NCBI GenBank assembly: GCA_030696265.1
Contig: JAUYSO010000017.1
Span: forward strand, 8,368 to 72,367
Direction: 5' to 3'
From: Myxococcales bacterium
GTDB lineage: Bacteria; Myxococcota; Myxococcia; Myxococcales; Myxococcaceae
Length of the DNA: 64,000 nucleotides
Below are positions 6,736-48,910 of this stretch, piece after piece. How positions within the stretch are numbered: position 1 is the stretch's first letter; each line of letters begins with the position of its first letter. Under the pieces are notes generated by a model. That model was not told the origin of the DNA, made no database searches, and saw only the letters and a list, made by a program, of their open reading frames with translations. The position numbers and the translations under genes are program-made.

Positions 6736-7264
6736 AGAACCGCACGCCGAGCAGCACCTGACTCGAGAAGACGTCTCCGCGGAGCAGCGGAAAACTGCCT
6801 CGAACGAAGACCTGGGCCACGCCGTCGAAGTTGCCCCACGAGCGATGCAGCTTCGCGGTGAGCTCCGGGCCGACCCGAATCGTCCATGCGTCGGGCACGG
6901 TGCGGCCCTTGAGCCCGACGCCCACGAACGCGCCGAGCGAGAACCACCGCCACGCCACCGGGCTCGCCGACGCGACGACGGTGCCCTCGAACGTTCCGGG
7001 CGCGAGCTGAAGCTCACCCTCGAGGAGCGCGCTGAACTTGAGCGCGCCGTGACGCTCCGCGGCCGAGTGGAACACCGCCAGCCCCAACCCAAGCGACAAC
7101 CGGCCACCGAAGCCCAGCCGCTCCCACAACCCCGACGCCCCGAGCGTGGGTCCGAGCGCGACGTTCTTGAACAGGCTCACCTCGTCGAAGCCGTGCTCCA
7201 CACCGGTGAGCGGCCCCGCGTGCGCAAGCCCACAGAGGAACATGACGACGAGCGCCCACCGCAT
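6719..7264 (-). CDS. hypothetical secreted/outer-membrane protein
   Basis: Signal peptide MRWALVVMFLCGLAHA. Alternating-hydrophobic, Gly-rich beta-strand-like sequence. Convergent with and slightly overlapping the NUDIX 3' end. Confidence 0.55.
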   Translation of the reverse strand: MRWALVVMFLCGLAHAGPLTGVEHGFDEVSLFKNVALGPTLGASGLWERLGFGGRLSLGLGLAVFHSAAERHGALKFSALLEGELQLAPGTFEGTVVASASPVAWRWFSLGAFVGVGLKGRTVPDAWTIRVGPELTAKLHRSWGNFDGVAQVFVRGSFPLLRGDVFSSQVLLGVRFFIDLA

Positions 7265-7427
7265 CAGCCCAGTATCGCCGAAGTGAAGCCCCTTGCTGTT
7301 CACTCGAGGTGGCATCGGAGCACCCGCACACCCGGATCCGCTGCTGCTGAGGTGTCACTCCGGGCGCCTGCCCTGCTGAACCCTGCAGAATCGCGCGCTG
7401 GCGAGGCGCTTGCTCAAGGGAGCAGGC

Positions 7428-8222
7428 ATGAACGCTCGCAACCGCCTGCCGACCGTCGCCCGTCACAGCCTCGAAGCGCTCCTCGTCGAAGGGCGCATGC
7501 CGCTCGACGCGGCGCTGCAGCTCTCGCATGCCCTGGTTCGAGCGATCGAGGATCATCACGCGACAGGTCAGGCCATCGGGCCCTTCGACACCGGCTCCAT
7601 CGCGGTCGACGTGCTCGGCCACGTGGTGATCAAACCGTCGCTGCGACCCGAGGCGGCGGCGCCTGAGCTCGGCGTCGGCGGCGTGGCGGACCTGCTCTCC
7701 GATCTGCACAGCCTGGGCGGCGTCTTGTACCGCCTGTTCGCCGGCCTCTCGCACCAGGACGCCGCGAAGCGCTCGGGAGGCTCGCTCGTGCCGCCCAGCC
7801 GCTTCAACCCCACCATCGACGACGCCCTCGACGGCCTCGTGCTCACGCTGCTCGACCCCGACCCCATCGAGCGCCCGTACCGCCTCGCGCAGGTCGACGG
7901 TCAGCTGCTCGCCATCTTCGCCGAGCTGGGCCTCGAGCCGTCGCCTCAGGCGGTCTCGTCGTGGGTCGCCTCGCATCGCCCGGCCGCGCCAGTGGCTACC
8001 GCCGCTCCGATTCAGCTCACCGCCCCGGTTCCGCTCGCGAAGCTGAGCGCGCCACGCCGCACGCCGCCGCCAGTGAAGTGGGCGCTCGACGCAGAAGACG
8101 AAGCCGACGTGGCTGACGAGTCGTTCGACCCGGCCTGGGAAGGGCCAGTGCGCTTCGACCTGTGGGCTGCCGCGAGCGCCGGCGTCGTCGCGCTCGGCCT
8201 CTCGCTCATCGCGCTGATGTAG
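7428..8222 (+). CDS. kinase-like (degenerate protein-kinase C-lobe) protein with C-terminal TM helix
   Basis: ATG 7428 has a GGGAG Shine-Dalgarno 7 nt upstream; the ORF-track start at 7410 is TTG. Remnants of Hanks-kinase subdomains VIII-X: APELG and DLHSLGGVLYRLFAG. No glycine loop, VAIK or HRD motif. C-terminal hydrophobic helix AAASAGVVALGLSLIALM. Confidence 0.6.
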   Translation: MNARNRLPTVARHSLEALLVEGRMPLDAALQLSHALVRAIEDHHATGQAIGPFDTGSIAVDVLGHVVIKPSLRPEAAAPELGVGGVADLLSDLHSLGGVLYRLFAGLSHQDAAKRSGGSLVPPSRFNPTIDDALDGLVLTLLDPDPIERPYRLAQVDGQLLAIFAELGLEPSPQAVSSWVASHRPAAPVATAAPIQLTAPVPLAKLSAPRRTPPPVKWALDAEDEADVADESFDPAWEGPVRFDLWAAASAGVVALGLSLIALM

Positions 8223-9082: not shown

Positions 9083-10837
9083 TCAGAGCGCGTTGCAGGC
9101 ACCCACGATTCGGCAGGTGGCGCCGTCGAGGCCGTTGCACGTCATGCTCAATGACGTCTGGTTGATGACGGTGCAGCTGCCGGTGCCTGCCGAGCGTTGG
9201 GTCGAGAGCGTGCCGAGCGTGAAGCCGAGCGGGCAGATGTTCGTGGCGCTCACGGTGAAGGTCTCGGTCGGAGGGACGAACGCGCAGGTCTTCGTCGCTG
9301 ACGTCGTCGTATAGGCACCCAGGAGCACGCACTGCGCCGTCGCGAGCGGATTCGTGTCACGGCAGTCGTCGACGGCGTTGCAGGTGTTGGGCAGCCGGAA
9401 CCCCGACGGCGGGCTCGCCCCGCTGCACTGGCTGGTGGTCGGCCCGAAGCAGTACCCATCGTTGTCGCCGTCGGGCCGCACCGACAGCAGTTGGTAGATC
9501 GCCGGGTTCGAGTCGTTGCAGTCGTTCTGGGTGATGCAGTTGAACGGGAAGCTCAAGCCAGGCGGAGCCGTGTTTCCCGCGCACTGGTTGACGACGGGGC
9601 CGCTGCTGCAGCGACGGTCGCCGTCGGCGTCGACGATGAACACCGAGATGGCGAACAGGCTGGCGTTCGCATCGTCGCAGTCGTCTCCGAGACAGGTCGT
9701 CGCCAGGCGCCGCCCCACTCCAGGTGCGGCTCCGCTGCACTCGTTCGTCGCGGCCCCTGCGCAGAACGAGTCGCTGTCGGCGTCAGCGCGAGTGGAGAGC
9801 AGTTGGTACAGCTGCGGATTGGTGTCGTTGCAGTCGTCCTGCGCGCCACATGAGGCGGGCGCGCGTCGACCCGGAGCCAGCGTCGCTCCGGCGCAGTCTT
9901 GAACCGTCGCGCCGATGCATCGGCTGTCGTTGTCGACGTCAGCGCGCGCCGAGAGGAGCTGGTAGCGCTGCGCGTCGGCGTCGTTGCAGTCGTCTTGTGC
10001 AGCACACGTCGCGGGGTCGCGTTGGCCGGCGCCCAGCGAGACGCCGACGCACGCCTGGACGACCGAGCCGACACACCGGCCGTCGGTGTCGACGTCCGCG
10101 CGTGCAGGGAGGAGCCGGTAGCTCGCGGCGATGGCCGGTGCGCAGTCGAGGCCCAGCGACACATTCGGAGCGACCAGACCCACTGGGCACGAGCCAGCGA
10201 ACATGCGCAAGCTGTCGGGGCAGGCGGTCACCGTCACACTCGAGCTCGCATAGCGATCGTCGTCTTCATCGGGGTTGCACACGATGGTCACCCCTTCATC
10301 GACCTGACCATTGCAGTTGTTGTCGATGCCATCGCACGCCTCGATGTTCGGCACGCACGTCGAACCGCCATCGCCGACGGTGCCGCCGCCGAAGTTCCCA
10401 CCGTCGCCGACGACTCCCCCGCCGAAATTCCCACCGTCGCCGACGACTCCGCCGCCGAAGTTCCCGCCGTCGCCGACGGTGCCGCCGCCGAAGTTCCCGC
10501 CGTCGCCGACGACTCCCCCGCCGAAATTCCCACCGTCGGTGTCTCCGCCACCGACGTTGCCGCCCGCGACACTGCCGCCAGCGGCGTTTCCGCCCGCGCT
10601 GTTCCCACCGGCGACGTTGCCACCGGCAGCGTTCCCGCCAGCGCTGTTCCCACCAGCGTCGCCACCAGCGACGTTGCCACCGGCAGCGTTCCCGCCGCCG
10701 ACGGGGCTTCCGCCACCACTTCCGCCTGCCGTTCTGCCGCCTGCGCTTCCACCTGCCGCGCCGGCATCATCAGTGCCCGGCATGGTTCCACACCCGACGA
10801 CGAAGAAGACGAGGACGACGATTTGACGGAGTGACAT
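9083..10837 (-). CDS. Cys-rich repeat lipoprotein (Gly-rich tandem repeats plus six copies of a C...DDCNDxN putative metal-binding-motif repeat)
   Basis: Start MSLRQIVVLVFFVVGCG (lipobox) inside ORF 9083..10924. Five repeats GGNFGGG(V/T)VGD; about six repeats of the type QDDCNDADAQRYQLLSARADVDNDSRC. Confidence 0.75.
   Translation of the reverse strand: MSLRQIVVLVFFVVGCGTMPGTDDAGAAGGSAGGRTAGGSGGGSPVGGGNAAGGNVAGGDAGGNSAGGNAAGGNVAGGNSAGGNAAGGSVAGGNVGGGDTDGGNFGGGVVGDGGNFGGGTVGDGGNFGGGVVGDGGNFGGGVVGDGGNFGGGTVGDGGSTCVPNIEACDGIDNNCNGQVDEGVTIVCNPDEDDDRYASSSVTVTACPDSLRMFAGSCPVGLVAPNVSLGLDCAPAIAASYRLLPARADVDTDGRCVGSVVQACVGVSLGAGQRDPATCAAQDDCNDADAQRYQLLSARADVDNDSRCIGATVQDCAGATLAPGRRAPASCGAQDDCNDTNPQLYQLLSTRADADSDSFCAGAATNECSGAAPGVGRRLATTCLGDDCDDANASLFAISVFIVDADGDRRCSSGPVVNQCAGNTAPPGLSFPFNCITQNDCNDSNPAIYQLLSVRPDGDNDGYCFGPTTSQCSGASPPSGFRLPNTCNAVDDCRDTNPLATAQCVLLGAYTTTSATKTCAFVPPTETFTVSATNICPLGFTLGTLSTQRSAGTGSCTVINQTSLSMTCNGLDGATCRIVGACNAL
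10375..10545 (-). repeat. intragenic tandem repeat, 33-nt period, about 5 copies (encodes GGNFGGGxVGD)
   Basis: gaagttcccaccgtcgccgacgactcccccgcc repeated almost identically on the plus strand. Confidence 0.8.
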
Positions 10838-10920
10838 GGACGAACACCCTACCGGGCGCATCGCGTGGCCGACCGGACTGGCGCCTTCGTGACATCGTTT
10901 GGCGGGCGAGCCGCGGCGCC

Positions 10921-12942
10921 TCAACTCACTTCATTCGGTGACGGAGGCTTCGGCCGCACCACGTTCGCGAACTGCACGTGCTCCCGGAGCGTCTGCTCGA
11001 TCGCCTCGGTGAAGGGCTCTCCGATTGGCGCGCGCGACGACGAGCGGAGCCATCGCGCGAACCAGCGGTCGCCCAGCGGCAGCGCCAACGCCTCGAGGGT
11101 CGTCGTCGCCACCGTCGTCTCGGTGCGCGTGCTGGTCGTGACGCCCTGCCCAACGTTGTAGCCAGCCAGCAGCATCGACAGCCGCGCCGGCATCGACGCG
11201 GTCGACGAGATCAACATGCCGCCCTCGTCGTTGGTGTGCCGGCGCAGCGCGCGCAGGAAGTCGACGGACCACAAGGTCGGGTTCGCCTCGGGAGAGAATG
11301 GATCGAAGAAGATCAGATCGGCCCAGCCCGGCACGCCGTCGATCGTCTCTCGCGCGTCTCCCGGCAGCACGCGCCACGACAGCCCGGCGCCTTCCCAGTG
11401 TCCCTGGTCGAGCAGCGCTTCACACGCGGTCTTCCACGGCTGCAGAAACGAGAACCCGGCTGGGTCTCTCAACGCGAGCTCGAGCGCGGCGAGGTCCGAC
11501 TCCAGGCTGATGACCTCGACCGTGCGCTTGCGGCGCTCGCCCATCGCCTGGGCCTTCGAGAGCGCGGCGATCGCGTTCGCACCAGCCCCGAGCCCGACGT
11601 CGAGAATGACGAACGGCTCGTCACGGAACACCTCGAGGCGCTTCTCGAGCCCAGGCTGATCGACGAAGAGCGCGTTCGCCTCCTCCCACGGGCCGACCGG
11701 GTGCATCACCTCGCCGTGCTCGACGTGCCGCAACGCCCGCTGCCCCGCGCGCGTCATCACCACCTCGAACCCGCCCTGCCGGTCACCCGTCGCGCGAGGC
11801 CTGGTGTTCCTCGGCGCGAGCCGTTCGACCAGCTCGCGATACTCCGCGTCCCACCGGTTCTCGATGATGGCGTCGCGCATGCGCCGCGTGAGCTGTTGGA
11901 AATGATGCAGGTTGTGAATCGCGAGCAGCCGGCTGGCGAGGTGGTGCGAGCCCTGCGCGAGGTGGCGAAGGTACGAGCGTGTGTAGCGGGTGCACGTCGG
12001 GCAGCGGCAGCTCTCGTCGAGCGGGCGATCGTCGAAGCGGTACTCGTGCTTGCTGATGCGCAGGCGGCCGTCGAACGTGTACGCGTAGCCCTGCTGCGCC
12101 ATCATCGGCGGGATGATGCAGTCGAACATGTCGATGCCGCGGTGCACGCACTCGACGAGATCGATCGGCGTGCCCACGCCCATCAGGTAGCGCGGCTTCT
12201 CGGCCGGCAGCTGCGGCGCCGTGTGGCCCGTCATCTCGTAGAGCAGCTCGCGCGACTCACCGACCGCCAGCCCACCGATGGCGAACCCATCGAACGGGTG
12301 CGGCGTGAGGAACTGCGCGCTCTGGGTGCGCAGCGCCTTGAACACCCCGCCCTGCACGATCGCGAAGAGCGCCTGGCCCGTCGGGCGTGCGTCTCGGGCG
12401 GCGAGGCTGCGGAGCGCCCACCGATGCGTGCGCTCCATCGCGTCGGTGGTGACGGCCTCGCTCGACGTCGACGGCGGGCACACGTCGAGCACCATCATGA
12501 TGTCGCTGTTGATGGCGTTCTGCATCGCGATGCTGGACTCGGGCGAGAGCAGGTGGCGCTGGTTGTCGTACGGGCTGCGGAAGCGCGCGCCGGCCTCCGA
12601 GATCTCGCGCTCTCCCGGCAGGCTGAAGATCTGAAAACCACCCGAGTCGGTGAGCACGCCGTGCGGCCACTGCATGAAGGGGTGAATGCCGCCGGTCTTC
12701 TCGAACACCCCGATGCCCGGCCTCAGGAGCAGGTGGTACGTGTTCGACAGACAGAAGCGCGCGCCGCTCTCGGCCACGTCGTCCATCGTGAGGAACCGCA
12801 CGTGGGCATGCGTCGCGACCGGCATGAACGCGGGCGTCTCGAGCACCCCTCGCCGCGTGTGGAGCCGGCCCGCACGGGCTCCCGACGACGACGACGCGAG
12901 CAGCTCGAAACGCAAGGGGCCTTCAGGAGCAGGTGGCGTCAT
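10921..12942 (-). CDS. tgt: queuine tRNA-ribosyltransferase fused to a C-terminal MnmC-like (DUF752) SAM-dependent methyltransferase domain
   Basis: N-terminal ~390 aa carry TGT motifs: VLTDSGGFQ, MVLDVC, LMGVGTP...GIDMFDC, and the Zn site CRCPTCTRY...H. C-terminal ~270 aa: FVILDVGLGAGANAIAAL and DLIFFDPFSPEANPTLWSVDFLRALRR match the MnmC N-terminal methyltransferase (DUF752) signature DGFxPxKNPxLW. Confidence 0.85.
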   Translation of the reverse strand: MTPPAPEGPLRFELLASSSSGARAGRLHTRRGVLETPAFMPVATHAHVRFLTMDDVAESGARFCLSNTYHLLLRPGIGVFEKTGGIHPFMQWPHGVLTDSGGFQIFSLPGEREISEAGARFRSPYDNQRHLLSPESSIAMQNAINSDIMMVLDVCPPSTSSEAVTTDAMERTHRWALRSLAARDARPTGQALFAIVQGGVFKALRTQSAQFLTPHPFDGFAIGGLAVGESRELLYEMTGHTAPQLPAEKPRYLMGVGTPIDLVECVHRGIDMFDCIIPPMMAQQGYAYTFDGRLRISKHEYRFDDRPLDESCRCPTCTRYTRSYLRHLAQGSHHLASRLLAIHNLHHFQQLTRRMRDAIIENRWDAEYRELVERLAPRNTRPRATGDRQGGFEVVMTRAGQRALRHVEHGEVMHPVGPWEEANALFVDQPGLEKRLEVFRDEPFVILDVGLGAGANAIAALSKAQAMGERRKRTVEVISLESDLAALELALRDPAGFSFLQPWKTACEALLDQGHWEGAGLSWRVLPGDARETIDGVPGWADLIFFDPFSPEANPTLWSVDFLRALRRHTNDEGGMLISSTASMPARLSMLLAGYNVGQGVTTSTRTETTVATTTLEALALPLGDRWFARWLRSSSRAPIGEPFTEAIEQTLREHVQFANVVRPKPPSPNEVS

Positions 12943-19743: not shown

Positions 19744-21327
19744 CTACGGACAGCCCACGTACGCGAAGTACAGCTCGGTGTTGCCGGCCGGCGCATTGCG
19801 ATCGTCACGCCAGCAGAACGCGAAGGTGTTGCCGTTCCACAGCGCGGTCGTGAACGTGGACGAGCCCGAGCCGCTCGAGAGCCGCAGATCGCTTCCGTTC
19901 TTCACGCCGGTGCCCGACAGCTGCATGAAATAAATGGCCGGCCGGCCCATGGTGACGCGCTCGTCCTGCCACGAGACGCCGTACTCGAAGCCGTTCCAGT
20001 CGATGCTGGCGTAGCCCGAGAAGCCGGCCGCGTTGGTGAGGCGCACCTCGGCGCCAAGTTTCTGGCCCGCGTCCGACAGGCGCTGGAAGTACACCTCGGC
20101 GTTGCCGTCACGCGTGTCGTGCCAGACCAGGGCCCACTCGGCGCGGTCAGGGTTCCACGCGAGGTCGGCCCAGGCCGAGTCGGCGGCGTTGTTGGTGATG
20201 CGCAGCTCGGCGCCCACCGGAGTGCCGTCGACGGCGAGCCTGCGGAAGTAGATCTCACGATTACCGTCACGCCAGTCGGTCCACGCGAGGCCGAAGCCCT
20301 GCCCGCTCCACTTGAGGATGGGGTAGCTCTGACGCTGCGGGTCGGTGGTGACGCGCACCTCGTTCCCCAGGCGCGTGCCGTTGGTGTCGAAGCGCATGAA
20401 GAAGAGGTCTTGCCGGTTGTTGCCGGCGCGCTCGTCTTCCCACACCATCGCGAACTCGGTGCCGGTCCACACGACGTCGGGCCAGTCGGAGTCGAGCGGC
20501 GCGCTGGTCAGTCGCACCGGAGCCCCGAGCGGCTGGCCGGTGTTTGAGATGGCCCGGTAATACAGCTCGAGGTTGTCGACGGAGTCGTCTGCGTAGACCA
20601 GCCCCCAGCGTGAGCCGGTGAAGGCCAGCGCCGGGTGCGTCGAGATGCCGGGCGTGGTGCTGACGCGAACGTCTCCGCCTCGTCGCGCGCCCTGCTTGTC
20701 GAGGGTGGTGAAGTAGATGTCGCCCTTCATCGACGCGCCGTCACGCGTGTCCTGCCAGGCGAGGCCGAAGCCATTCGTTGCAGACGCGATGTAGACGAAG
20801 TCGGTCGTGGCCGGATCGTTGGTGAGGCGCAGGTCGCCAGAAGCGTTGGTGAGCAGGCCCTCGTCGACGGTGCCGTCGCAATCGTCGTCTTTGCCGTTGC
20901 ACGTCTCGGTGGCCGGCATGCCAGGCGTGCAGGTCTGCGCGGAGCCCATGGCGCACGTCGACTGAACGATGGCGCACTCTCCGACGCCGCACATCGCCGG
21001 CATCAGGTTCTCATCGATGGCGCCGTTGCAGTCGTCGTCGAGGCCGTTGCACGTCTCAGCGGTCGGAGCTCCCGGCGTGCAGGTCTGCGGCGCGCCCTGG
21101 AAGCAGGCGGAGATGGCCCGTTTGCACGCGCCAACGCCGCACTCGACCGACGGCTGCTCCTCGTCGACCAGCAGGTCGCAGTCGTCGTCGAGGCCGTTGC
21201 AGAGCTCGACGGTGGGAATGCACTCGGGCGGCAGGCCGGCGTCTTCTGCGCTGACGAGCTGAATGCGCGGGCCAGAGCAGGTGCAGCCCGTGAGGGAGAG
21301 GAGGAGGAAGAGACCGACCACTCGCAT
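19744..21327 (-). CDS. lipoprotein with three Cys-rich CNGxDDDCxG metal-binding-motif repeats and seven ~45-aa beta-propeller-like repeats
   Basis: Lipobox LLLSLTGCT. Repeats ETCNGLDDDCNGAIDE x3. Blade-like repeats contain DIYFTTL, ELYYRAI, DLFFMRF, EIYFRRL, EVYFQRL, AIYFMQL, ELYFAYV. Confidence 0.75.
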   Translation of the reverse strand: MRVVGLFLLLSLTGCTCSGPRIQLVSAEDAGLPPECIPTVELCNGLDDDCDLLVDEEQPSVECGVGACKRAISACFQGAPQTCTPGAPTAETCNGLDDDCNGAIDENLMPAMCGVGECAIVQSTCAMGSAQTCTPGMPATETCNGKDDDCDGTVDEGLLTNASGDLRLTNDPATTDFVYIASATNGFGLAWQDTRDGASMKGDIYFTTLDKQGARRGGDVRVSTTPGISTHPALAFTGSRWGLVYADDSVDNLELYYRAISNTGQPLGAPVRLTSAPLDSDWPDVVWTGTEFAMVWEDERAGNNRQDLFFMRFDTNGTRLGNEVRVTTDPQRQSYPILKWSGQGFGLAWTDWRDGNREIYFRRLAVDGTPVGAELRITNNAADSAWADLAWNPDRAEWALVWHDTRDGNAEVYFQRLSDAGQKLGAEVRLTNAAGFSGYASIDWNGFEYGVSWQDERVTMGRPAIYFMQLSGTGVKNGSDLRLSSGSGSSTFTTALWNGNTFAFCWRDDRNAPAGNTELYFAYVGCP

Positions 21328-27047: not shown

Positions 27048-27133
27048 GTTTCAGTGGCGTCACCTTGCCGTTTCCTGACGAGTGAAAGGGTCACGATCCT
27101 GCCTGCTGTTTGCGGGTAGGGTGGCGCCGCTCG

Positions 27134-29341
27134 ATGCGCCCGGTCATCGCCTTTGCAGCCTGCCTGTGGTCGGCCTCCGCGTTCGGGGCCATCTACGAGG
27201 CCGTCGTCGACGCCGACAACGAAGAAGACATCTTCGCGATGGTGCAGCGAGGCGACATCTCGCAGGACACGGGCGACACCCTGCTCGAGCTGCTTCGCGA
27301 AGGCGTCGACCTGAACTCGGCGCCGCGCGAGAGGCTCTATGACTTGCCCGGCCTCACCTACGACGACGTCGACAAGCTCATCCTCTACCGCACGCAGAAG
27401 GGCCGCATCGAAGACCCGGCCGAGCTCGTCGGCGCCGGGGTGATGACCGCCGAGCAGCTCATCGGCATCGCCGTCTACATCTCGCTCGAGCCGGTGAAAG
27501 AGAAGCTGCCAATCGGCGGCAAGCTTCGCCTGCTCACCCAATACACGCTGACCGATTCGCTCGCGCCGCCGGCGCTCTTCGCGGCCCGGCTCAGGGGCCC
27601 GCTCGACCTGACCGCCGGCGCCATGCTCGTCACCAGCCGGCTCGACCCGGTGCAGCCCCGCTTCGACCAGACGCTCCAGGGCCTCGCGACCGAAGGCTAC
27701 AGGTACCGCCTCGACGCGCCGCGCCTGTTCCTGCAGTGGCTCAACGGCAACCGCCGCGTCATCGTCGGCACCTTCACCATCGGCTTCGGCGAGCGCCTCA
27801 CGCTCGACAACACGCGCCGGGTGACCCCGCGCGGCCTCTACCTCACCGACGACTTCAGGCGAAACCAGGACCTCTCGACCCTCTGCCGCACCAGCGTCGA
27901 CACCGGCGCCACGCCGCCCCCCGAGTGTCAGGGTGACAGCCGCTACGTCACCGCCGACTACGCGACGCGCGACGCTTTCCGTGGCGTCGCCGGCAGCATC
28001 GAGAACCTCGACCTCGGCGACCAGCGCTCGCTCTCGCTCTACGGTTTCCTCTCGTACCAGTCGCGCGGCGTGTACCAGTACGATCTGTACGATCGCGCCA
28101 CCTGCCTCGACCCTTCGTCGAGCGACTCGGACTGCAGCTCGCCGCGCATCTCCATCCTGAACCCGCAGGACCCGAGCACCCCATGGCGGCTTCGCTACGC
28201 CACCCTGCCTGGCTTCTTCGACGAGCTCTCGGCCGGCGGCCACGTCGACTTCAAGCCCAACTACGCCCTTCGCTTCGGCATCACGGGGTACGGCGCGGTC
28301 CCCTTCTTCAACACCGTGCCTCCAGGCAGCGCGGTGCAGCCCGACTTCCAGGACACCTCGCGCTACCCCAACGGCGGCGCCTACGGAGCCATCGGCGTCG
28401 ACGCGCAGGCCGTGCTCGGCCCCGTCAACCTGCACCTCGAGGTGACGCGCAGCTTCGACAAGGCCATCAACAACCAGGGCGGCGGCTTCGGCGCCGTGCA
28501 GCGCACCACCTGGGCGCCCAAGGGCCACGAGCTCGAGGTCGTCTTCCGCTATTACGACAACCGGTTCCTCAACCCCTACGCACGGCCGTTCTCAGGGCCC
28601 GACGAAGACGCCGGCCAGCGGGCGCGCAACGAGCTCGGCGCGCGGGTGCGCTACTTCGGCAAGTTCAGTCGCGACTGGCAGTTTCGCGCCACCGCCGACT
28701 TCTGGACGCTGCCCTTCGCCGGCCGGGGAGGCCGCGCAGGCACCACCAACCTCATCCTCCTCACGCGCGTCGACTTCACGGGCTTCAGGGGCTTGAAGCC
28801 CAGCATCTGGTTCCGCCTGAGCGACAGAAACCTCGCCGTCAGCCAACGCGGGGTCTGCAGCCAGACCCAGGTGGTCTCGGGCATGCCCGAGTTCTTCAAC
28901 ACCCCGGACGACTTCGACGGCGAGGTCACCTTCTTCACCTGCGACTCGTACCGCGTCGTGCAGCGCATCGACGTGCGCCCCTTCGGCAAGCGCCTGGGCT
29001 TCACCGAGCAGGCCTCGTTCTCGTGGCGCGACGACCTCTCGAGCGCGTACCGCGAGAACTTTCGCAACGACCTGCAGGTCTGGGTCGAGGCGATGAGTCA
29101 GCCGGTCGACTGGCTCTCGCTGCGGCTGCGCTCACGCCTGCGCGCCGAGGGCATCGACAGCCCCACCACCTACGAAGACTCGCTGTGGACGTTCTTCGAG
29201 GCCGCGTGGATTCCGTTCAAGGGCACGCGCGTCGCGGCGCGCTACGACCTGTTCGTGTGGCTCGACCAACGGGCCTCGACCTTGCGCCGGCAGCCCTCTC
29301 CAGAGCATCGTTTCCTCCTCGACCTCCGCACCAGCTTCTGA
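27134..29341 (+). CDS. predicted outer-membrane beta-barrel protein with an N-terminal ComEA-like helix-hairpin-helix (DNA-binding) domain
   Basis: Signal peptide MRPVIAFAACLWSASAFGA. HhH: VDLNSAPRERLYDLPGLTYDDVDKLILYRTQKGRIEDPAELVGAGVMTAEQL. Then ~600 aa of alternating-polarity strands rich in G/Y/F/R. Ends ...FLLDLRTSF, a C-terminal Phe beta-signal. Confidence 0.7.
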   Translation: MRPVIAFAACLWSASAFGAIYEAVVDADNEEDIFAMVQRGDISQDTGDTLLELLREGVDLNSAPRERLYDLPGLTYDDVDKLILYRTQKGRIEDPAELVGAGVMTAEQLIGIAVYISLEPVKEKLPIGGKLRLLTQYTLTDSLAPPALFAARLRGPLDLTAGAMLVTSRLDPVQPRFDQTLQGLATEGYRYRLDAPRLFLQWLNGNRRVIVGTFTIGFGERLTLDNTRRVTPRGLYLTDDFRRNQDLSTLCRTSVDTGATPPPECQGDSRYVTADYATRDAFRGVAGSIENLDLGDQRSLSLYGFLSYQSRGVYQYDLYDRATCLDPSSSDSDCSSPRISILNPQDPSTPWRLRYATLPGFFDELSAGGHVDFKPNYALRFGITGYGAVPFFNTVPPGSAVQPDFQDTSRYPNGGAYGAIGVDAQAVLGPVNLHLEVTRSFDKAINNQGGGFGAVQRTTWAPKGHELEVVFRYYDNRFLNPYARPFSGPDEDAGQRARNELGARVRYFGKFSRDWQFRATADFWTLPFAGRGGRAGTTNLILLTRVDFTGFRGLKPSIWFRLSDRNLAVSQRGVCSQTQVVSGMPEFFNTPDDFDGEVTFFTCDSYRVVQRIDVRPFGKRLGFTEQASFSWRDDLSSAYRENFRNDLQVWVEAMSQPVDWLSLRLRSRLRAEGIDSPTTYEDSLWTFFEAAWIPFKGTRVAARYDLFVWLDQRASTLRRQPSPEHRFLLDLRTSF

Positions 29342-29347
29342 CCCACC

Positions 29348-30478
29348 ATGATCTCGCTCCCCCTTCGCCTTCTCGCCGTCACCGCGCTCCTCCTGGCGCT
29401 CTCGTGCGCTGGCGTCACCACGGAGCAGTCCAAGCGCTTCACGAAGGACGAGACCCGCTCGCTGCTCAAGCGCCTCGAGACCGTCAGCCTCGAGCTCGGC
29501 GAGTTCCCCATCGAGGGCGCCTCGTCGGTGCTCGACGGCGACACCATCAAGGTCAAGGGCCTGCCAGCGTCGCTGCGTCTGCTGGGCCTCGACACCGAAG
29601 AGACGTTCAAGAAGGACTCCGAGCGCGCGGCGTTCGCGGCGGGCTGGGAGCAATACAAGAAGCAGATGCAGGGAACGTCGTCGCGGCCGGCGAAGTACGC
29701 CACGCCACTGGGCGAAGACGCCAAGCACTACGCGCAGGCCTTCTTCGAAGACGTTCGCGAGGTGCGCATGGAGCGCGACCACCCCGGCGAGATCCGCGAC
29801 TTCTACAACCGCTACCTCGCCTACGTGTTCGCGAAGAAGAACGGCCAGTGGGTGAACTACAACGTCGAGTGTGTGCGGGCCGGCTTCTCGCCCTACTTCG
29901 TGAAGTACGGCCGCAGCCGCCGCTTCCACAAAGAGTTCGTCGACGCCGAGCGCGAGGCGCGTGAAGGCCAGCGCGGCATCTGGAAGCAGGGCGCCATGGC
30001 CTACCCCGACTACGAGGAGCGCCTGAAGTGGTGGGCCGAGCGCGAGGCCGTCATCACCCGCTTCGAGAAGGCGGCCGTCGAAGACCCGGAGCACTACATC
30101 GCGCTCACCCGCTGGGACGCGATGCTGAAGCTCGAGAGCAAGGTCGGCCAGGAGGTGACGATTCTCGGCTCGGTCAGCGACCTGAAATACAGCGAAGGCA
30201 CCGGGCCCTCGGTGGTGAAGCTCGCCCGCACCCGCACCAACGACTTCGACGTCGTCTTCTTCGACCGCGACGTCTTGTTGTCCACCGGCGTGCAGTTCAA
30301 GAAGAGTGAATACGTGCAGGTGCGCGGCACCGTGCAGAAGTACAAGAACGAGAAGGGCTGGGAGCGGCTGCAGGTGGTCGTCTCACTCCCCGGGCAGGTG
30401 CTCGCGCCGTCGACCTCGCTCGAGAAGCTGCTGACTGATGATCAGAAACGGGCCGACCGCAGTGAAGAGGATGACTAA
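29348..30478 (+). CDS. staphylococcal-nuclease (SNase/thermonuclease) fold lipoprotein
   Basis: Lipobox LLLALSCAG. SNase motifs VLDGDTIKV and LRLLGLDTEE. 7 nt after the barrel gene. Confidence 0.8.
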   Translation: MISLPLRLLAVTALLLALSCAGVTTEQSKRFTKDETRSLLKRLETVSLELGEFPIEGASSVLDGDTIKVKGLPASLRLLGLDTEETFKKDSERAAFAAGWEQYKKQMQGTSSRPAKYATPLGEDAKHYAQAFFEDVREVRMERDHPGEIRDFYNRYLAYVFAKKNGQWVNYNVECVRAGFSPYFVKYGRSRRFHKEFVDAEREAREGQRGIWKQGAMAYPDYEERLKWWAEREAVITRFEKAAVEDPEHYIALTRWDAMLKLESKVGQEVTILGSVSDLKYSEGTGPSVVKLARTRTNDFDVVFFDRDVLLSTGVQFKKSEYVQVRGTVQKYKNEKGWERLQVVVSLPGQVLAPSTSLEKLLTDDQKRADRSEEDD

Positions 30479-32786
30479 CGTGCCTTCAATTCGAGTGATG
30501 TTCCTGGTGGCGGCCGTCGCGGCCGTGTCGTGTACCCCGCCCGTCGACATGCCCACCGACGCCTGCAAGGGCCGCGTGGCCGGAGACCTCGTCATCACCG
30601 AGCTGATGCTCGACCCCGAGGGCACCGACACAGGCGCCGAGTGGATCGAGATCTTCAACACCCTCGGCACGCCGATCGACCTGCGCGGCTACACCATCAC
30701 CTACCGGCAAGGCACCTCGACGGCGAAGTCGCACACCGTTCGTGCCTCGGTGCAGGTGCCGGCCCGCGGCTACCTCGCGCTCGGTGACGTGCGCTCGGGC
30801 CCCAACCCCTCGTGGATTGGCTACAGCTACGGAGACGATCTCGGCGCGCTCAGCCAGACCTCAGGCACCGTCGCCATTCGCTGCGGCATGACGGCCATCA
30901 ACGAGTACAGCTACTCGCGCGCCGCGCGCTCGGGCCGCTCCCGCATGCTCGGCGGTGGCGTCGACCCCGATGCCTCGCGCGTCTCGAACGAGGCCAACTG
31001 GTGCGACACGCCCACCTCGACCGAGTACACGCCGCGCGGCTACGGCACGCCCGGCGGCCCCAACCCGCAGTGCGCTCCCGAGGCGATGGTCGGCACCTGC
31101 CTGCAGAACGGCATGCCCCGCCCCATCGTCGCGGCCGAGGCCGGAGACCTGCTCATCACCGAGGTCATGGCGAGCCCGAGGGCCGTCACCGACACCCTCG
31201 GCGAGTGGATCGAGCTCTACGCCACCACCGACGTCGACCTCAACGGCCTCGCCATCGCGACGAGCACCAGCCGCGCCACGCTCACCTCTCCTGAGTGCCT
31301 CACGGTGCCGGCGCAGTCGTACAACATCATCGCGCGCTCGAACGACGCCTTCGTCAACGGCGGCCTGCCGAAGGCCGTGGCGACGTTCTCGGTCAGCCTC
31401 TCGTCGGCCAATGAGCGGCTGCGGCTGGTGCGTGGTGATGCCGGCATCGACGACGCCACCTTCTTCGCCTCGCAGACCGGCGTCTCATGGCAGGTGCGAC
31501 CCGAGCTGCTCGCCAACCCCGACGAGATTCTGCCCAGCCTCAACGACACCCCTGACTCGTTCTGCAAAGCCAGCTCAGCGTGGATGGGGAGCGCGGGCGA
31601 CTTCGGAACGCCCGCCGCGGCCAACGGAGCCTGCGCTGCGGACTCTGGCGTCGTGGTGGTGCCCGACGGCGGCCTGCCGACCTTCGACTGCAACGCCATC
31701 GACGGGGGCGACCTCGTCGTCACCGAGGTGATGGTCGACCCGCCCAGCACCGACACCGGCCTCGAGTGGTTCGAGCTCTTCAACACGACGGCCGCGCCCA
31801 TCGACCTCGCGGGCCTCACGCTCACCTACCGCCAGGGCGCGACGACCCCCAGGTCCCACGTCGTGCGCAGCTCCGTCATCGTGCCGCCGGGCCAGGCGGT
31901 CGCGGTCGGCGACGTGCGCACCGGGCCGAACCCCGCGTGGATCAGCTACGCCTACGGCGCAGACCTGGGCGCGTTGAACAACTCGTCGGGCACCGTGGGC
32001 GTTCGCTGCGACACGAAGGTCGTCGGTGAATACACGTGGGTGCGCACGGCGCGCTCCGGGCGAAGCCGCATGCTCGGTGGGCCTGTGACGCCCACGACTG
32101 CGCTCGCTGCGGTCGAGGCCAACTGGTGCGACACGCCGACCAGCAGCGAGTACACGCCTGGCAGCTCTGGCACCCCTGGCGCGGCGAACCCGGTCTGCGC
32201 TCCAGAAGCCATGACGGGCACCTGCCTCGACAACGGCACCCCGCGGCCCATCGTCGCCGCAGAGCCGGGCGACCTCGTCATCACCGAGGTGATGCCAAGC
32301 CCGTCGGTCAGCACCACGGTCGGAACCTGGTTCGAGGTGTACGCCACGACCGACGTCGACCTGAATGGCCTCTCGGTCGCCAACGGCGCAGGCACGCGCA
32401 ACACCATCGCCTCGTCGAACTGCCTGCGCGTGCCGGCGACGACGTACGCGATTCTCGCGCGCAGCGCGAACGCGTTCCTCAACGGCGGGCTACCGCCCCC
32501 CATCGCCACCTTCACCATCGGCATCAGCAGCTCGGGCAACGAGCTGCTGCGGCTCTTCCGGGGTGACGCCGGCATCGACGAGATCTCGTTCTTCCGGTCG
32601 ACGAGCGGCAAGTCATGGCAGGTGCCCGGTGAGCTGCTGATCGACCCGATGCTCATCACGCCCGCCATCAACGACGTGCCGGCGAACCTGTGCATCGCGC
32701 CGAACCGTTTCGCCACCGACGCCGGGCCCGGCGACTACGGCAGCCCGACCGAGCTGAACCCCCTCTGTGACGGCGGCGCGCCCTGA
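30471..32786 (+). CDS. lipoprotein of four lamin-tail-domain (LTD)-like repeats, arranged as an internal ~330-aa tandem duplication
   Basis: ATG 30471 has GAGG 4 nt upstream. Lipobox AAVAAVSCT. LTD signatures LVITELMLDPEGTDTGAEWIEIFN...IDLRGYTI, LLITEVMASP...EWIELYATTDVDLNGL, LVVTEVMVDPPSTDTGLEWFELFN, LVITEVMPSP...WFEVYATTDVDLNGL. Confidence 0.7.
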   Translation: MTNVPSIRVMFLVAAVAAVSCTPPVDMPTDACKGRVAGDLVITELMLDPEGTDTGAEWIEIFNTLGTPIDLRGYTITYRQGTSTAKSHTVRASVQVPARGYLALGDVRSGPNPSWIGYSYGDDLGALSQTSGTVAIRCGMTAINEYSYSRAARSGRSRMLGGGVDPDASRVSNEANWCDTPTSTEYTPRGYGTPGGPNPQCAPEAMVGTCLQNGMPRPIVAAEAGDLLITEVMASPRAVTDTLGEWIELYATTDVDLNGLAIATSTSRATLTSPECLTVPAQSYNIIARSNDAFVNGGLPKAVATFSVSLSSANERLRLVRGDAGIDDATFFASQTGVSWQVRPELLANPDEILPSLNDTPDSFCKASSAWMGSAGDFGTPAAANGACAADSGVVVVPDGGLPTFDCNAIDGGDLVVTEVMVDPPSTDTGLEWFELFNTTAAPIDLAGLTLTYRQGATTPRSHVVRSSVIVPPGQAVAVGDVRTGPNPAWISYAYGADLGALNNSSGTVGVRCDTKVVGEYTWVRTARSGRSRMLGGPVTPTTALAAVEANWCDTPTSSEYTPGSSGTPGAANPVCAPEAMTGTCLDNGTPRPIVAAEPGDLVITEVMPSPSVSTTVGTWFEVYATTDVDLNGLSVANGAGTRNTIASSNCLRVPATTYAILARSANAFLNGGLPPPIATFTIGISSSGNELLRLFRGDAGIDEISFFRSTSGKSWQVPGELLIDPMLITPAINDVPANLCIAPNRFATDAGPGDYGSPTELNPLCDGGAP

Positions 32787-32815
32787 CGCGCTCGAAGCCC
32801 TGGAGCGCAGCGCTG

Positions 32816-33280
32816 GTGATGATGCCCATGGTGGCGGCCTGTGGAATGCCCACGCCACCCAGCCTCTGCGGGCCCTCGACGGCCGTCGTCAGCCGCGCCA
32901 TCGATGGCGATACGCTCGAGCTGTCTGACGGCAAGCGGGTGCGCCTGCTCCTCGTCGACACGCCCGAGTCGACCAACGGCAAGACCGACTGCTTCGGCCA
33001 GCAAGCCGCGCAGTTCACCTCGGACACGGTGACAGGCAAGACGGTGGAGCTCAGCTACGACGAGGCCGGCTGCACCGACCGGTTCGGGCGAACGTTGGCC
33101 TATGTGAAGGTCAACGGCGTCGACCTGAACCGCACGCTCGTCGAGCAGGGCTATGCGTGCACGCTGTACGTGTCTCCATCGGGCGGCGCGCGGCGCGACG
33201 AGTTCGAGACGTACGAGTCGCAGGCGAAGACGAGCCGCCTTGGCTTGTGGGGCGCGTGCACCGTCGTCACCTGCCAGTAG
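32816..33280 (+). CDS. staphylococcal-nuclease (SNase/thermonuclease) fold protein, probably a lipoprotein
   Basis: RAIDGDTLEL and VRLLLVDTPE. N-terminal MMMPMVAACG is a short Cys-containing leader. Confidence 0.75.
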   Translation: MMMPMVAACGMPTPPSLCGPSTAVVSRAIDGDTLELSDGKRVRLLLVDTPESTNGKTDCFGQQAAQFTSDTVTGKTVELSYDEAGCTDRFGRTLAYVKVNGVDLNRTLVEQGYACTLYVSPSGGARRDEFETYESQAKTSRLGLWGACTVVTCQ

Positions 33281-44036: not shown

Positions 44037-46439
44037 CTACGGCCACTGCACCCGCACGCCGGCTTGCACCGCAAGCGGAGCCAGCGGCCTCGCACCGAAT
44101 GGGCGCCGCGCCACCACCACCTGCTGGTTCGTCAGGTTCATGCCCTGCGCGTAGAACTGAAACAGCCCCACCCGGTAGCTCGCCGTCGCGTCGAGCAACA
44201 CCCGCGCCGGCACCGTCGGCTGCGAGAGGCCGTCGCCCGCCTCCTCGACGACGCCACCAGAGAACTCCGCGCCCACCGACAGCGACAGCGCGTCGCGGTT
44301 GAAGATGAGCCGCGCCGAGCCCTGGTGCATCGGCACGTACGGAATGAGGTCGCCCGCCCGCACCACGCCCCAGATGGGGTTCGACGAGGTGAAGTCGGAC
44401 AAGAACCGCGCGCTCGTCAGGGTGTACGTCACCTGAGGCACCAGCTCGATGTCGGCCGGGAGCGGAATCACGACCGACGCCAGGGCCTCGAGCCCGACGA
44501 TGCGCGCCGCGCCCCCGTTGAACTGCCGGTTGAGCGCGTCGTCGACGCAGCCCGTGCTGCCGGTGCACTCCCCGGTGATGTTCGAGTACTCGCTCCAGAA
44601 CCCCACCAGCTCGAGCCGACGACGCCGCGACGGCGACCGAACGCCCAGCTCGCCATGCAGCGCCCGCTCGGGCCGCACGTCCGCCGACTGGCCGGGCGTC
44701 ACGGGGCTGAAGCCCTGGTGCACACCTCCAAAGACGTTGAGGCCCAGCGGCAACGCCACCACCGCGCCCGCGCCGAAGAGCGGCACCGCCTGGAGCGACC
44801 GCGACGTCTTTCCCGAGAGGTCGTCCTTGAACACCGTGTCGATGAGCTCGACGCGCATGCCCGGCGACACCAGCAGGCGCCCCCACGTCATGGTGTCATG
44901 CAGGTGCAGCGCCCCGGCCCGCGAGAGCCCCCGGTTGAGCGCGTCCTGCGCCACCGGCAGGGCGTCAGGCTCGAGCGCGCCGCCGACGACTGCGTAGCCG
45001 GTGGCGGTGTGGTTGCGCCGAACCTCGTCGTGGTGGAACCGCAGGCCCGCTTCGAGCTCGTGCTGCACTGGCCCCGTCGTCAGCTTCGCCACCGCCTCGG
45101 CCTGCACCCCCTGGCTCACCAGGGTGCGCGCGTTGTTCAGCACGATGAGCGACTCGTCGAGGCTGCTCGAATCGACCGCCCCGCGCAGCACGCCGAGGTA
45201 CTGACCGTCGAGTCCTCCGCGCACCGGCTGCACCAACAGCTCGTACAGGCCCGGGCCCCGCCGGAAGCGATCGAGCCGGTTCCACGCGCGGAACATCGAG
45301 TGCCGGTACGCCGTCGCAGACAACGACAACCACGACGCCGGTTGGGCGCTCCAGCGGGCCGTCACCGAGAGCCGGTTCCACTCCATCCGGTCGAGCGCCG
45401 TCGTCGCGTACCGGCGGTTCGGCGTCGCCTCGAAGTCCTCGGTCGACACGCCCAGGTACGTCTCCCGGCTGTCCTCGAGCGCGAGCGTCGCCTTCACCTC
45501 GAGCTGCTGCTGCCACGCGTCGTTGGGGCTCACGCGCCCCTTCAGCATCACCTCGCCGCGCTCGAAGCCGGTGTTGCCGCCGCGGTCGAGCACCTTGAAC
45601 CCCTCGTCGCGCAGGAACACGCCCTCGGCGAGCAGGCCCCAGCGCTCCGTGCCCACCGCGGCGACGCCGTGCACCCGCGCCTGAAAGCGGCTGCCTCCAG
45701 CGACGTCGAGCTTGAAGAGGTGCTCCTTCGGCACCTCGCGCGTGCGCAGGTTGATGGCGCCGCCAATCGTCTGGGGACCGAACCGAATCGCCGCTGGCCC
45801 TTTGTAGACCTCGAGCCCCACCATTCGGGTGACGAGCGGAAAGTAGTACGCGGCGGGAGCGGAGTACGGCGCCGGCGTGAGCAGCACCCCGTCTTCCATC
45901 AGCGTGACCTTCGCGCTCCGATCGGGGTTCGCGCCGCGCAGGCCGATGTTCGGCCGCAGGCCCAGCCCATCTTCTTCACGAAAGTACACGCCAGGCACCT
46001 CACCCAGGACCCGGTGAATGTCGTTGAGTTCGCGGCGCTCGAGGTCTTCCTCGCCGAGCGTCACCGCGCTGCCGGTGATGCGCCGAACGTCAGGCCCCCG
46101 CTGCCCCACCACCCTGGTGGTGAAGCCCACTCCGGCGTCGGCGGCCGGCGCCGCTTCGTCCTCGGCGTCCCACACGCCACCATCGGGGCCAGCCACCGTG
46201 CCGGCACGGGCTTGCTCTCCCGCGTCGAAGCCGCCACCGTCGGGATCAGCCGCCGTCACGCCACGCGGTGCCGCAGCTTCATCCGCTTCGAAGCTGCCAC
46301 CGTCGGCGAGCGGCGGCAGCTCGCTCACTCGCGTGCGGGACTCCCAGTGGCCGCGAGGTTCGTCGAACGAGCCTCCGTCAGCCGAACCGGTCGGCGTCTG
46401 GGCGACGAACAACGACACGACGACCGGCCACCACATCAC
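44037..46439 (-). CDS. TonB-dependent outer-membrane receptor
   Basis: Signal peptide. N-terminal acidic DGG(S/G/V)(F/W)DAE repeats. Plug-domain motifs (VTLGEEDLERRELNDIHRVLGEVPGV, ...TLMEDGV). About 600-aa barrel. Confidence 0.8.
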   Translation of the reverse strand: MMWWPVVVSLFVAQTPTGSADGGSFDEPRGHWESRTRVSELPPLADGGSFEADEAAAPRGVTAADPDGGGFDAGEQARAGTVAGPDGGVWDAEDEAAPAADAGVGFTTRVVGQRGPDVRRITGSAVTLGEEDLERRELNDIHRVLGEVPGVYFREEDGLGLRPNIGLRGANPDRSAKVTLMEDGVLLTPAPYSAPAAYYFPLVTRMVGLEVYKGPAAIRFGPQTIGGAINLRTREVPKEHLFKLDVAGGSRFQARVHGVAAVGTERWGLLAEGVFLRDEGFKVLDRGGNTGFERGEVMLKGRVSPNDAWQQQLEVKATLALEDSRETYLGVSTEDFEATPNRRYATTALDRMEWNRLSVTARWSAQPASWLSLSATAYRHSMFRAWNRLDRFRRGPGLYELLVQPVRGGLDGQYLGVLRGAVDSSSLDESLIVLNNARTLVSQGVQAEAVAKLTTGPVQHELEAGLRFHHDEVRRNHTATGYAVVGGALEPDALPVAQDALNRGLSRAGALHLHDTMTWGRLLVSPGMRVELIDTVFKDDLSGKTSRSLQAVPLFGAGAVVALPLGLNVFGGVHQGFSPVTPGQSADVRPERALHGELGVRSPSRRRRLELVGFWSEYSNITGECTGSTGCVDDALNRQFNGGAARIVGLEALASVVIPLPADIELVPQVTYTLTSARFLSDFTSSNPIWGVVRAGDLIPYVPMHQGSARLIFNRDALSLSVGAEFSGGVVEEAGDGLSQPTVPARVLLDATASYRVGLFQFYAQGMNLTNQQVVVARRPFGARPLAPLAVQAGVRVQWP

Positions 46440-46440
46440 G

Positions 46441-48881: not shown

Positions 48882-48910
48882 GGTGCCTGTGTGACAAGGG
48901 TGCACTGCGC

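Follow-up and report, generated by a model that had tools for sequence, protein, structure and literature searches.

In bacteria, the queuine/preQ1 tRNA-ribosyltransferase Tgt replaces the guanine at position 34 (G34) by 7-aminomethyl-7-deazaguanine (preQ1), a base that bears a primary aminomethyl group at C7. The subject of this work is a gene in which a Tgt is joined, within a single open reading frame (ORF), to a methyltransferase of the MnmC2 family; it lies in a stretch of 64,000 nucleotides from a Myxococcales bacterium (positions 8,368 to 72,367 of contig JAUYSO010000017.1, assembly GCA_030696265.1), referred to below as the window. MnmC2 enzymes methylate the primary aminomethyl group at C5 of nm5(s2)U34, that is 5-aminomethyluridine or its 2-thio derivative at the wobble position, with the use of a catalytic aspartate; the aspartate of motif IV is the proposed catalytic base, motif I binds the carboxylate of S-adenosylmethionine (SAM), and a stand-alone MnmC2 without an oxidase has been characterised experimentally in Aquifex (PMC3527978). 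N-methylated preQ1 is itself known in phage DNA, where it is made by an unrelated enzyme (PMC10516641).

The window's gene is best explained as the fused version of a two-gene module conserved in Myxococcota that consists of a paralogous Tgt (Tgt2) and a stand-alone-type PF05430 SAM-dependent N-methyltransferase. A literature search, incomplete in its coverage, found no prior description of a fusion between Tgt and MnmC2 or DUF752. The case is one of known domains in an undescribed conserved partnership with a distinct Tgt subfamily, in proteins that are already present in public databases.

The fusion and its two halves

An earlier, sequence-only reading of this DNA had placed Tgt and MnmC/DUF752 domains in one ORF, and sequence, profile and fold uphold it. 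The ORF runs from an ATG at 12942 to a TGA at 10921 on the minus strand with no internal stop, and is divided as follows.

10921..12942, minus strand: whole fusion ORF, Tgt2 plus MnmC2-family methyltransferase, 673 amino acids and stop; a single ORF with continuous coding signal
11821..12882, minus strand: Tgt domain, residues 21-374 (PF01702, 460 bits; TIGR00430, 436.6 bits)
11761..11820, minus strand: junction or linker, residues 375-394, matching the overlap of tgt stop and methyltransferase start in unfused relatives
10963..11760, minus strand: complete stand-alone-type MnmC2/DUF752 unit, residues 395-660, matching stand-alone proteins of about 280 amino acids over their full length

The motifs quoted in the sequence-only reading all occur at the residues given for them in the fusion protein, and a profile search of the C-terminal part, which that reading had proposed, yields PF05430 (Methyltransf_30, formerly DUF752), which scores 60.6 bits at residues 517-613 (cutoff 22). 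The C-terminal part is present as described, but measures 299 amino acids instead of the approximately 270 that were given. The statement that MnmC2 normally comes with a flavin adenine dinucleotide (FAD) domain was only partly right, since this domain has many relatives of about 280 amino acids that are free-standing proteins, as is the characterised MnmC2 of Aquifex (PMC3527978).

The G+C content at third codon positions is 0.80 in the first 50 codons and lies between 0.84 and 1.00 after codon 50, across both halves and the linker; this steady value through the two halves and their junction gives no indication of a hidden frameshift. The window protein is identical to a public protein from a Myxococcales metagenome-assembled genome (MAG), P0001, for which the NCBI name is only 'Tgt'. 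Among the matches listed, 118 of 120 clusters at 90% identity contain both domains, and the two-domain protein is therefore neither a product of chance nor an assembly artefact. The ORF is a genuine fusion of Tgt and methyltransferase in which both halves are complete. Both halves are also confident in the predicted model of the full-length protein (predicted local distance difference test, pLDDT, 91.2), in which the relative orientation of the domains is uncertain (predicted template modelling score, pTM, 0.69) and about 7 residues separate the last Tgt helix (end at 375) from the first methyltransferase strand (start at 383).

The Tgt half aligns with positions 6-363 of the 368 in the NCBIfam model TIGR00430, and its 436.6 bits exceed the equivalog cutoff of 306.75. 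It is 43% identical to E. coli Tgt and scores about 320-342 bits against solved Tgt structures. Its characteristic segments are the following.

12631..12651, minus strand: TDSGGFQ, residues 98-104, with the aspartate equivalent to E. coli Asp89; at least 98% conserved in 129 methyltransferase-linked Tgts
12478..12489, minus strand: LDVC, residues 152-155, the Asp/Cys side of the preQ1 pocket; conserved in linked Tgts
12256..12276, minus strand: GGLAVGE, residues 223-229, of the bacterial type (Val, not Gly); invariant in the 129 linked Tgts
12118..12132, minus strand: DMFDC, residues 271-275, with the nucleophile aspartate (E. coli Asp264); conserved in linked Tgts
12088..12111, minus strand: PPMMAQQG, residues 278-285, in place of PTRxxRxG with both arginines gone; subfamily signature
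11908..12009, minus strand: zinc site CxCxxC (CRCPTC, residues 312-317) with His343; conserved in homologs

We take LDVC to match the preQ1-pocket residues Asp156 and Cys158 (Z. mobilis numbering), and GGLAVGE presumably forms the Gly-Leu-Ala-Val side of the same pocket. The window protein also has YLMGVGTP at residues 252-259. In the 129 linked Tgts the segments TDSGGFQ, LDVC, VQGG, GGLAVGE, YLMGVGTP, DMFDC and CxCxxC…H are at least 90% conserved and mostly invariant, and the zinc-site residues C312, C314, C317 and H343 are unchanged in 60 fusion homologs. Judged by these sequences, the linked Tgts appear to be catalytically complete, with the catalytic aspartate pair, the preQ1 pocket and the zinc site retained. 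The ratio of nonsynonymous to synonymous substitution rates (omega) of the window's Tgt half against its sister L004/P0002 is 0.12, a sign of strong purifying selection. Intact catalytic residues and this low omega together argue that Tgt2 is more than a binding module.

The linked Tgts have a signature of their own in the PTRxxRxG segment, which reads PTRNARNG in E. coli, PTRSGRNG in Z. mobilis and P[TP][KTM]xAQQG in the linked proteins. The position of R270 is occupied by Lys in 108 of the 129, by Thr in 12, Met in 5, Ser in 2, Ala in 1 and Arg in 1; that of R273 by Gln in 112, Trp in 13, Glu in 2, Leu in 1 and Asp in 1, and never by Arg. This loss of arginine extends to all of the deep fused lineages. 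A further change, from PVGT to PVAT, is found in 103 of the 129.

The match to the tRNA Tgt equivalog model bears on the possibility that the fusion belongs to a DNA-modifying or defence-type system, which would place a 7-deazaguanine, perhaps methylated, in DNA in the manner of the DpdA systems or of phage mdPreQ1. Precedents exist in that mdPreQ1 is present in phage DNA (PMC10516641) and that DpdA, a member of the Tgt superfamily, acts on DNA. However, the Tgt half passes the model for the tRNA enzyme with 436 bits, and PADLOC returned no match to DpdA or another transglycosylase and only a weak, generic methyltransferase match (mad2, 25 bits). The loci have no dpd-like partners and lack the hallmarks of mobile elements, and their neighbourhoods are variable and of a housekeeping character. 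A role in DNA modification is very improbable on these grounds.

The methyltransferase half was compared in an exhaustive search with 1.84 billion representatives, closeness being counted in representatives at 50% identity. It has 1803 relatives at E <=1e-3, of which 151 fall under 1e-30. The top 150 are for the most part stand-alone proteins of 260-300 amino acids that align with nearly the whole query at 36-49% identity, and a Tgt sequence precedes the methyltransferase in only 11 of them. This full-length match to stand-alone proteins means that the fusion holds a complete stand-alone unit. When residues 395-673 are taken alone, the Aquifex aeolicus MnmC2 (3VYW) scores 85 bits against 21 bits for E. 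coli MnmC. The NCBIfam model of the MnmC2 domain (NF033855) gives 73.9 bits, under its cutoff of 136, and no member of the subfamily tested, fused or free, reaches that cutoff (scores of 74-99 bits).

The AlphaFold model of the methyltransferase half has a pLDDT of 95.3 and a pTM of 0.91. Foldseek places 3VYW first among its matches in the PDB (TM 0.72), followed by 2QY6, 3PS9, 3SGL and 3AWI, such that the MnmC domains of E. coli and Yersinia outrank generic class I methyltransferases by a wide margin. Thus, the methyltransferase half is predicted to have the class I MnmC2 fold, with an N-terminal beta-sheet lid and C-terminal helices. Three of its motifs can be located as follows.

11575..11601, minus strand: motif I, DVGLGAGAN, residues 448-456; D, G, G and N invariant in alignment A1
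11269..11310, minus strand: motif IV, FFDPFSPEANPTLW, residues 545-558, with catalytic Asp547 and Phe549; D547, P548, S550 and W558 invariant
11191..11208, minus strand: motif VI in a derived form, SSTASM, residues 579-584; T-Y-S-x-A/S-T in all 111 other full-length fusions

The window methyltransferase also has the glutamate of motif II (SLE), the aspartate of motif III (GDA) and, in motif IV, FDPFSP. The subfamily adds motifs of its own, namely an N-terminal hairpin …E[VT]MHP..GPWxEA..LY, an ETT and a C-terminal tail RW..R.S…HPQF. A change from Lys to Glu beside motif IV was considered as a marker of linkage to tgt and discarded, since the distant fused proteins P0106 and P0109 keep the Lys.

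Database names for the family differ: NCBI gives only 'MnmC family methyltransferase', while UniRef and JGI give MnmC or MnmD. Two PF05430 proteins of 272-289 amino acids without a Tgt domain, P0281 and P0283, bear the JGI name 'queuine tRNA-ribosyltransferase', a label that was probably carried over from fused proteins.

The gene pair across Myxococcota

A domain-alignment scan of one genome per species gave 282 confirmed loci, of which the best 80 were used to count locus states, assigned by tblastn with the two halves. These 80 belong to Myxococcota with the exception of two entries whose titles are doubtful or uninformative, 'Comamonas sp. KCTC 72670' and a 'Proteobacteria bacterium' MAG. 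The survey across Myxococcota that the sequence-only reading had suggested thus finds the two halves fused in frame at 35 of 80 loci, nearly all of them in uncultured Myxococcaceae or Archangium-like MAGs, the group into which the closest relatives of the window also fall. At 31 of the 80 loci the tgt lies directly upstream on the same strand as a separate ORF; such unfused, abutting pairs are found in cultured Myxococcus, Archangium, Cystobacter, Pyxidicoccus, Hyalangium and Vitiosangium. At 5 further loci the tgt lies 1-5 kb upstream of the methyltransferase gene. That the ORF might be two genes, which was named in the same reading as the outcome that would speak against a fusion, does not apply to the window with its intact ORF, but it does describe sister lineages, in which there are two genes with a 4-nt overlap.

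The spacing of the unfused pairs is tight. In 28 of the 31, the methyltransferase gene has a candidate start codon between -4 and +7 nt of the tgt stop, and the junction in Myxococcus xanthus DK1622, AAGGAGGTCGGGTGA, holds a Shine-Dalgarno sequence and then a GTG start codon overlapping the TGA of tgt (AAGGAGG-N4-GTGA). Unfused, the two genes form a translationally coupled pair. Separate genes in cultured relatives, and the sufficiency of a 1-nt change to fuse them, might suggest that the fusion is an artefact in which a sequencing or assembly error in a MAG has joined two genes. Against this stand the 35 independent loci, from different assemblies, that are fused in frame, the fused forms in very distant lineages (P0106, P0109, P0260, P0261) and the continuous coding signal, and an artefact is hardly credible.

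No tgt was found in the flank of 9 Corallococcus loci, of which 5 span at least 8 kb upstream (4 of them the full 10 kb) and 4 start at the methyltransferase gene. In Corallococcus interemptor (RAWM01000059.1; L093 and L048) a tgt of the linked type shares contig and strand with the methyltransferase gene at a distance of about 10.8 kb, with a UvrC_M-domain gene and genes for an acetyltransferase, a HAD hydrolase, OmpA and Kelch-repeat proteins between them. The Corallococcus gap looks like an insertion that broke the operon.

Crude trees of the two halves are revealing of the age of this association. In a neighbour-joining tree of the Tgt halves, the unfused clade of cultured strains is nested among fused lineages, and deeper branches are also fused (P0093, P0103, P0104, P0106, P0108-P0111, P0260 and P0261). 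The methyltransferase tree has fused forms scattered over at least 4 places among the stand-alone ones. The pattern may reflect an early fusion that was split several times, or several separate fusions, and in both cases the association has been maintained for long. Beyond Myxococcaceae the link fades, as in a Polyangiaceae-like genome (L085) whose tgt is 4.8 kb away.

Some loci have particular features. The proteins of a distant fused clade (P0108-P0117, about 49% identity; L002, about 11090-11230) have a long, low-complexity linker rich in Pro, Thr and Ala, for example PTATATATPTPTATPNPTATPT. In a delta-proteobacterial MAG (L037) the tgt match is 2 kb from the methyltransferase gene and is split over two frames, 6837-7538 and 7556-7957; a frameshift, decay of the copy or a sequencing error may be the cause. 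In a small sample of distant stand-alone methyltransferase genes from other lineages, one (L098) has a cold-shock protein gene upstream and a DTW-domain gene about 6 kb away, and another (L100) is flanked or overlapped by RF-1-like and SUI1 genes.

The pair in M. xanthus DK1622 bears on the identity of the Tgt half. In the gene table of this strain, secD (MXAN_4691), yajC (4692), tgt (4693) and queA (4694) are consecutive (PMC9548883 supplement). The cluster of methyltransferase-adjacent Tgts includes the DK1622 protein ABF90882.1, and at about 5.72 Mb of CP000113.1 an ABC-F ATPase gene, the linked tgt (about 5,723,417-5,724,586), the PF05430 gene (4-nt overlap) and a hydrolase gene follow one another, with neither queA nor yajC. 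Two different tgt neighbourhoods in one genome imply that DK1622 should have two tgt genes. Thus, the Tgt half appears, from its sequence relatives, to be a specialised second copy and not the housekeeping Tgt. No queA or yajC was found in the window or in about 90 related loci, and a tblastn search with E. coli probes for queA, yajC, queG, mnmE and mnmG gave none in the 1.49 Mb of Myxococcota flanks that it covered.

An alpha/beta-hydrolase gene directly follows the methyltransferase in Myxococcus and Pyxidicoccus (as at L096, 8172-9038) and also in the distant fused locus L002 (12019-13113). As a conserved partner it was rejected, because the hydrolases of L096 and L002 share no significant similarity and their placement is a coincidence. 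The ABC-F gene upstream is likewise a matter of local synteny only.

Proposed wobble-base chemistry: coupled or independent

A tentative preference, to which a little less than an even chance is given, goes to a chemistry in which Tgt2 inserts preQ1 and the methyltransferase then N-methylates its aminomethyl group. Under this proposal Tgt2 would exchange a guanine in an anticodon-loop-like RNA target for preQ1, and the attached methyltransferase would act on the aminomethyl nitrogen of the inserted base to give 7-(methylaminomethyl)-7-deazaguanosine. The aminomethyl group of preQ1 would be chemically equivalent, as a substrate, to the primary aminomethyl group of nm5(s2)U34 that is methylated by the characterised members of the family. 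Methylation would divert the modified site from the QueA/QueG route to queuosine, which would be served by the housekeeping Tgt. What the methyltransferase acts on, which reaction comes first and which RNA is targeted are inferred in this scheme. Coupling of the two steps explains why there is a second Tgt, why it is this paralog rather than the housekeeping copy that is coupled, and why the coupling has persisted. Of the two functions suggested in the sequence-only reading, methylation of a queuosine precursor by a recruited DUF752 domain thus gains indirect support from the paralogy and the lasting association, and a bifunctional wobble enzyme with different tRNAs as substrates stays a candidate. 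With the two arginines of the E. coli and Z. mobilis Tgt lost, the target may also differ from the canonical U33-G34-U35. It is conceivable, if doubtful, that Myxococcota including DK1622 possess a dedicated module that writes an undescribed N-methyl-preQ1 modification in RNA, perhaps away from the canonical U33-G34-U35 of the Asp, Asn, His and Tyr tRNAs, as a branch that competes with queuosine.

Several observations weigh against coupled chemistry. To our knowledge, no methylated preQ1 has been reported in RNA, and no preQ1 riboswitch or que gene was found near the fusion or the pair. Among five stand-alone members sampled beyond the Myxococcota loci of the survey, four lack a tgt within 8-10 kb, and a reading of the alignment found no active-site difference between tgt-linked and unlinked methyltransferases. 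The family is mostly stand-alone, and its ancestral role may simply be that of MnmC2 (nm5U to mnm5U), possibly retained in myxobacteria. The second tgt of DK1622 is deduced from two gene neighbourhoods rather than from the sequence of the canonical protein. Finally, the equivalent Arg286 and Arg289 of Z. mobilis presumably lie at the RNA-binding surface, although a literature search on their RNA contacts found nothing; the arginine-less signature is a lead and not evidence for a new specificity.

The mostly unlinked, stand-alone distribution of the family and the lack of an active-site difference favour an explanation in which the fusion combines two independent wobble activities. The Tgt half would place preQ1 at position 34 of GUN tRNAs on the way to queuosine, and the methyltransferase would be an MnmC2 or MnmD that converts nm5(s2)U34 to its 5-methylaminomethyl counterpart, mnm5(s2)U34, in tRNAs of the Lys, Glu and Gln type by the ammonium-dependent route, as in Aquifex; fusion would then serve co-expression or a shared handling of tRNA. 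The nearest characterised relatives of the methyltransferase are indeed MnmC2 enzymes, whose catalytic and SAM motifs, including the tyrosine that stacks on nm5U, are retained at the level of the family. Most members stand alone and are not linked to tgt, UniRef and JGI name them MnmC or MnmD, and a stand-alone MnmC2 works without an oxidase in experiments (PMC3527978). However, independent activities leave a second Tgt, beside the canonical queA-tgt-yajC locus, without a role, and offer no reason why the paralog instead of the housekeeping copy should have stayed coupled over deep divergence. Nor do they explain the changed signature of a paralog whose catalytic residues are intact, and the whole subfamily falls under the NCBI cutoff for MnmC2 (74-99 bits against 136). 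As the main rival, this explanation is regarded as somewhat less likely than coupled chemistry.

The short tether of about 7 residues would suit a hand-over in either direction, and two further arrangements can be considered together: the reverse order, in which free preQ1 is methylated and then inserted by Tgt2, and a targeting role, in which Tgt2 mainly delivers the anticodon loop to the methyltransferase. In the phage system the order followed by DpdM, on free preQ1 or on inserted dPreQ1, is likewise unsettled (PMC10516641). Characterised MnmC2 enzymes, however, use tRNA and not free bases (PMC3527978), and the pocket of Tgt2 is of the canonical, small preQ1 type, not enlarged for a bulkier base. 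A targeting role fits poorly with strictly conserved catalytic aspartates and a conserved zinc site. Both arrangements are improbable.

The window's own copy of the methyltransferase is divergent. Residue 580 in motif VI is Ser where Tyr stands in the 111 other fusions and in at least 90% of stand-alone relatives. The Tyr580 position of the fusion family corresponds to Tyr225 of Aquifex and Phe210 of E. coli, which are proposed to stack on the substrate base (PMC3527978). Of the positions conserved at 90% or more among the 111 fusions, the window protein departs at 8 of 73 in its methyltransferase half but at only 1 of 140 in its Tgt half, and six of the eight in the methyltransferase half are invariant elsewhere (Y426F, T579S, Y580S, S581T, T584M and G604S). 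Relative to the sister L004/P0002, 13 substitutions unique to the lineage fall in the methyltransferase half and 2 in the Tgt half, and omega is 0.32 in the former as opposed to 0.12 in the latter.

Three interpretations of this divergence were set aside. A compensated frameshift behind the change in motif VI is ruled out by the DNA, which shows several independent substitutions, and an adaptation of the family to a larger base by the change from Tyr to Ser is ruled out because the change is confined to the lineage of the window. A pseudogenised methyltransferase half is unsupported, as there are no stops and an omega of 0.32 is still purifying. These substitution patterns indicate that the methyltransferase half of the window is under relaxed or redirected selection and is not a pseudogene; with the tyrosine of motif VI lost, its activity or specificity may be altered or weakened.

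Genomic setting and comparison with known systems

The window is ordinary chromosome. Its genes include those for an NtrC-type regulator, a NUDIX protein, an AraC regulator, IleRS, pyruvate phosphate dikinase, aminopeptidase N and a TonB-dependent receptor, and no tRNA genes or Rfam elements were found in it. The ORF that abuts the stop of the fusion (9083-10924, minus strand) encodes a lipoprotein-like product with the signal VVLVFFVVGCG, Gly/Asn-rich tandem repeats (GGNxAGGN, and GGNFGGGxVGD about six times) and then repeated Cys-rich modules in which a MopE metal-binding motif is weakly recognisable. Another protein with the MopE motif is encoded at 19744-21327 on the minus strand, and genes with this motif also flank the fusion in L003. 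At 27110-33280 on the plus strand there is an apparently secreted, nuclease-type run that comprises an HHH_3 protein, an SNase homologue, a protein with three lamin-tail domains and a second SNase homologue. The TonB-dependent receptor, an HTTM/vitamin-K-carboxylase-like membrane protein and an imelysin (Peptidase_M75) are encoded together at 44037-50242 on the minus strand; L085 likewise has an HTTM gene immediately after its stand-alone methyltransferase gene, probably by chance.

If the coupled chemistry is correct, a new 7-deazaguanine derivative would join the catalogue of RNA modifications, an aminomethyl N-methyltransferase would have been turned from a pyrimidine to a deazapurine at the wobble position, and the presence of two Tgt genes in some bacteria would be explained. 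If the two activities are independent, the fusion would provide a clean stand-alone MnmC2 beyond Aquifex together with a second Tgt that is so far without purpose. The question is unusually easy to test, as M. xanthus DK1622, a genetic model, carries the unfused operon. The fusions also have a practical consequence, in that they lead annotation pipelines to place the name 'queuine tRNA-ribosyltransferase' on stand-alone methyltransferases.

Among known systems, bacterial Tgt (E. coli b0406; Z. mobilis 1ENU and 1OZM) has the same TIM barrel and zinc subdomain, catalytic aspartate, preQ1 pocket and CxCxxC...H as the Tgt half. The window and linked Tgts differ from it by a context without queA-tgt-yajC-secDF and by the lost arginines of PTRxxRxG. 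Furthermore, a linked Tgt is always fused to, overlapping with or close to a PF05430 methyltransferase, and in M. xanthus it apparently coexists with a canonical tgt.

The phage pair DpdA2 and DpdM resembles the proposed chemistry in its two proposed steps, insertion of preQ1 followed by N-methylation of the aminomethyl group (dPreQ1 to mdPreQ1), but it is encoded by phage and acts on DNA (PMC10516641), whereas the window's Tgt is of the tRNA type and has no DpdA match. DpdM was ruled out as a homologous precedent, since it is a DUF3109 metal-binding protein unrelated to PF05430 (PMC10516641).

The MnmC2 of Aquifex (3VYW; PMC3527978) is like the unit in the window in that it lacks the FAD oxidase and has the beta-hairpin lid, the C-terminal helices and motifs I-IV. 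The tyrosine of motif VI is common to both at the level of the family, although the window copy is without it. Identity with the Aquifex enzyme is only 25-28%, more than 150 representatives at 50% identity are closer to the query, and the family of the window adds its MHP..GPWxEA, ETT, RW..R.S and HPQF motifs and its coupling to Tgt. E. coli MnmC, in which MnmC2 is joined to the FAD oxidase MnmC1 (3AWI, 3PS9), has the same fold and offers a precedent for the fusion of this methyltransferase to the maker of its substrate; here, at about 22-29% identity, the partner is instead a transglycosylase and the methyltransferase is C-terminal rather than N-terminal.

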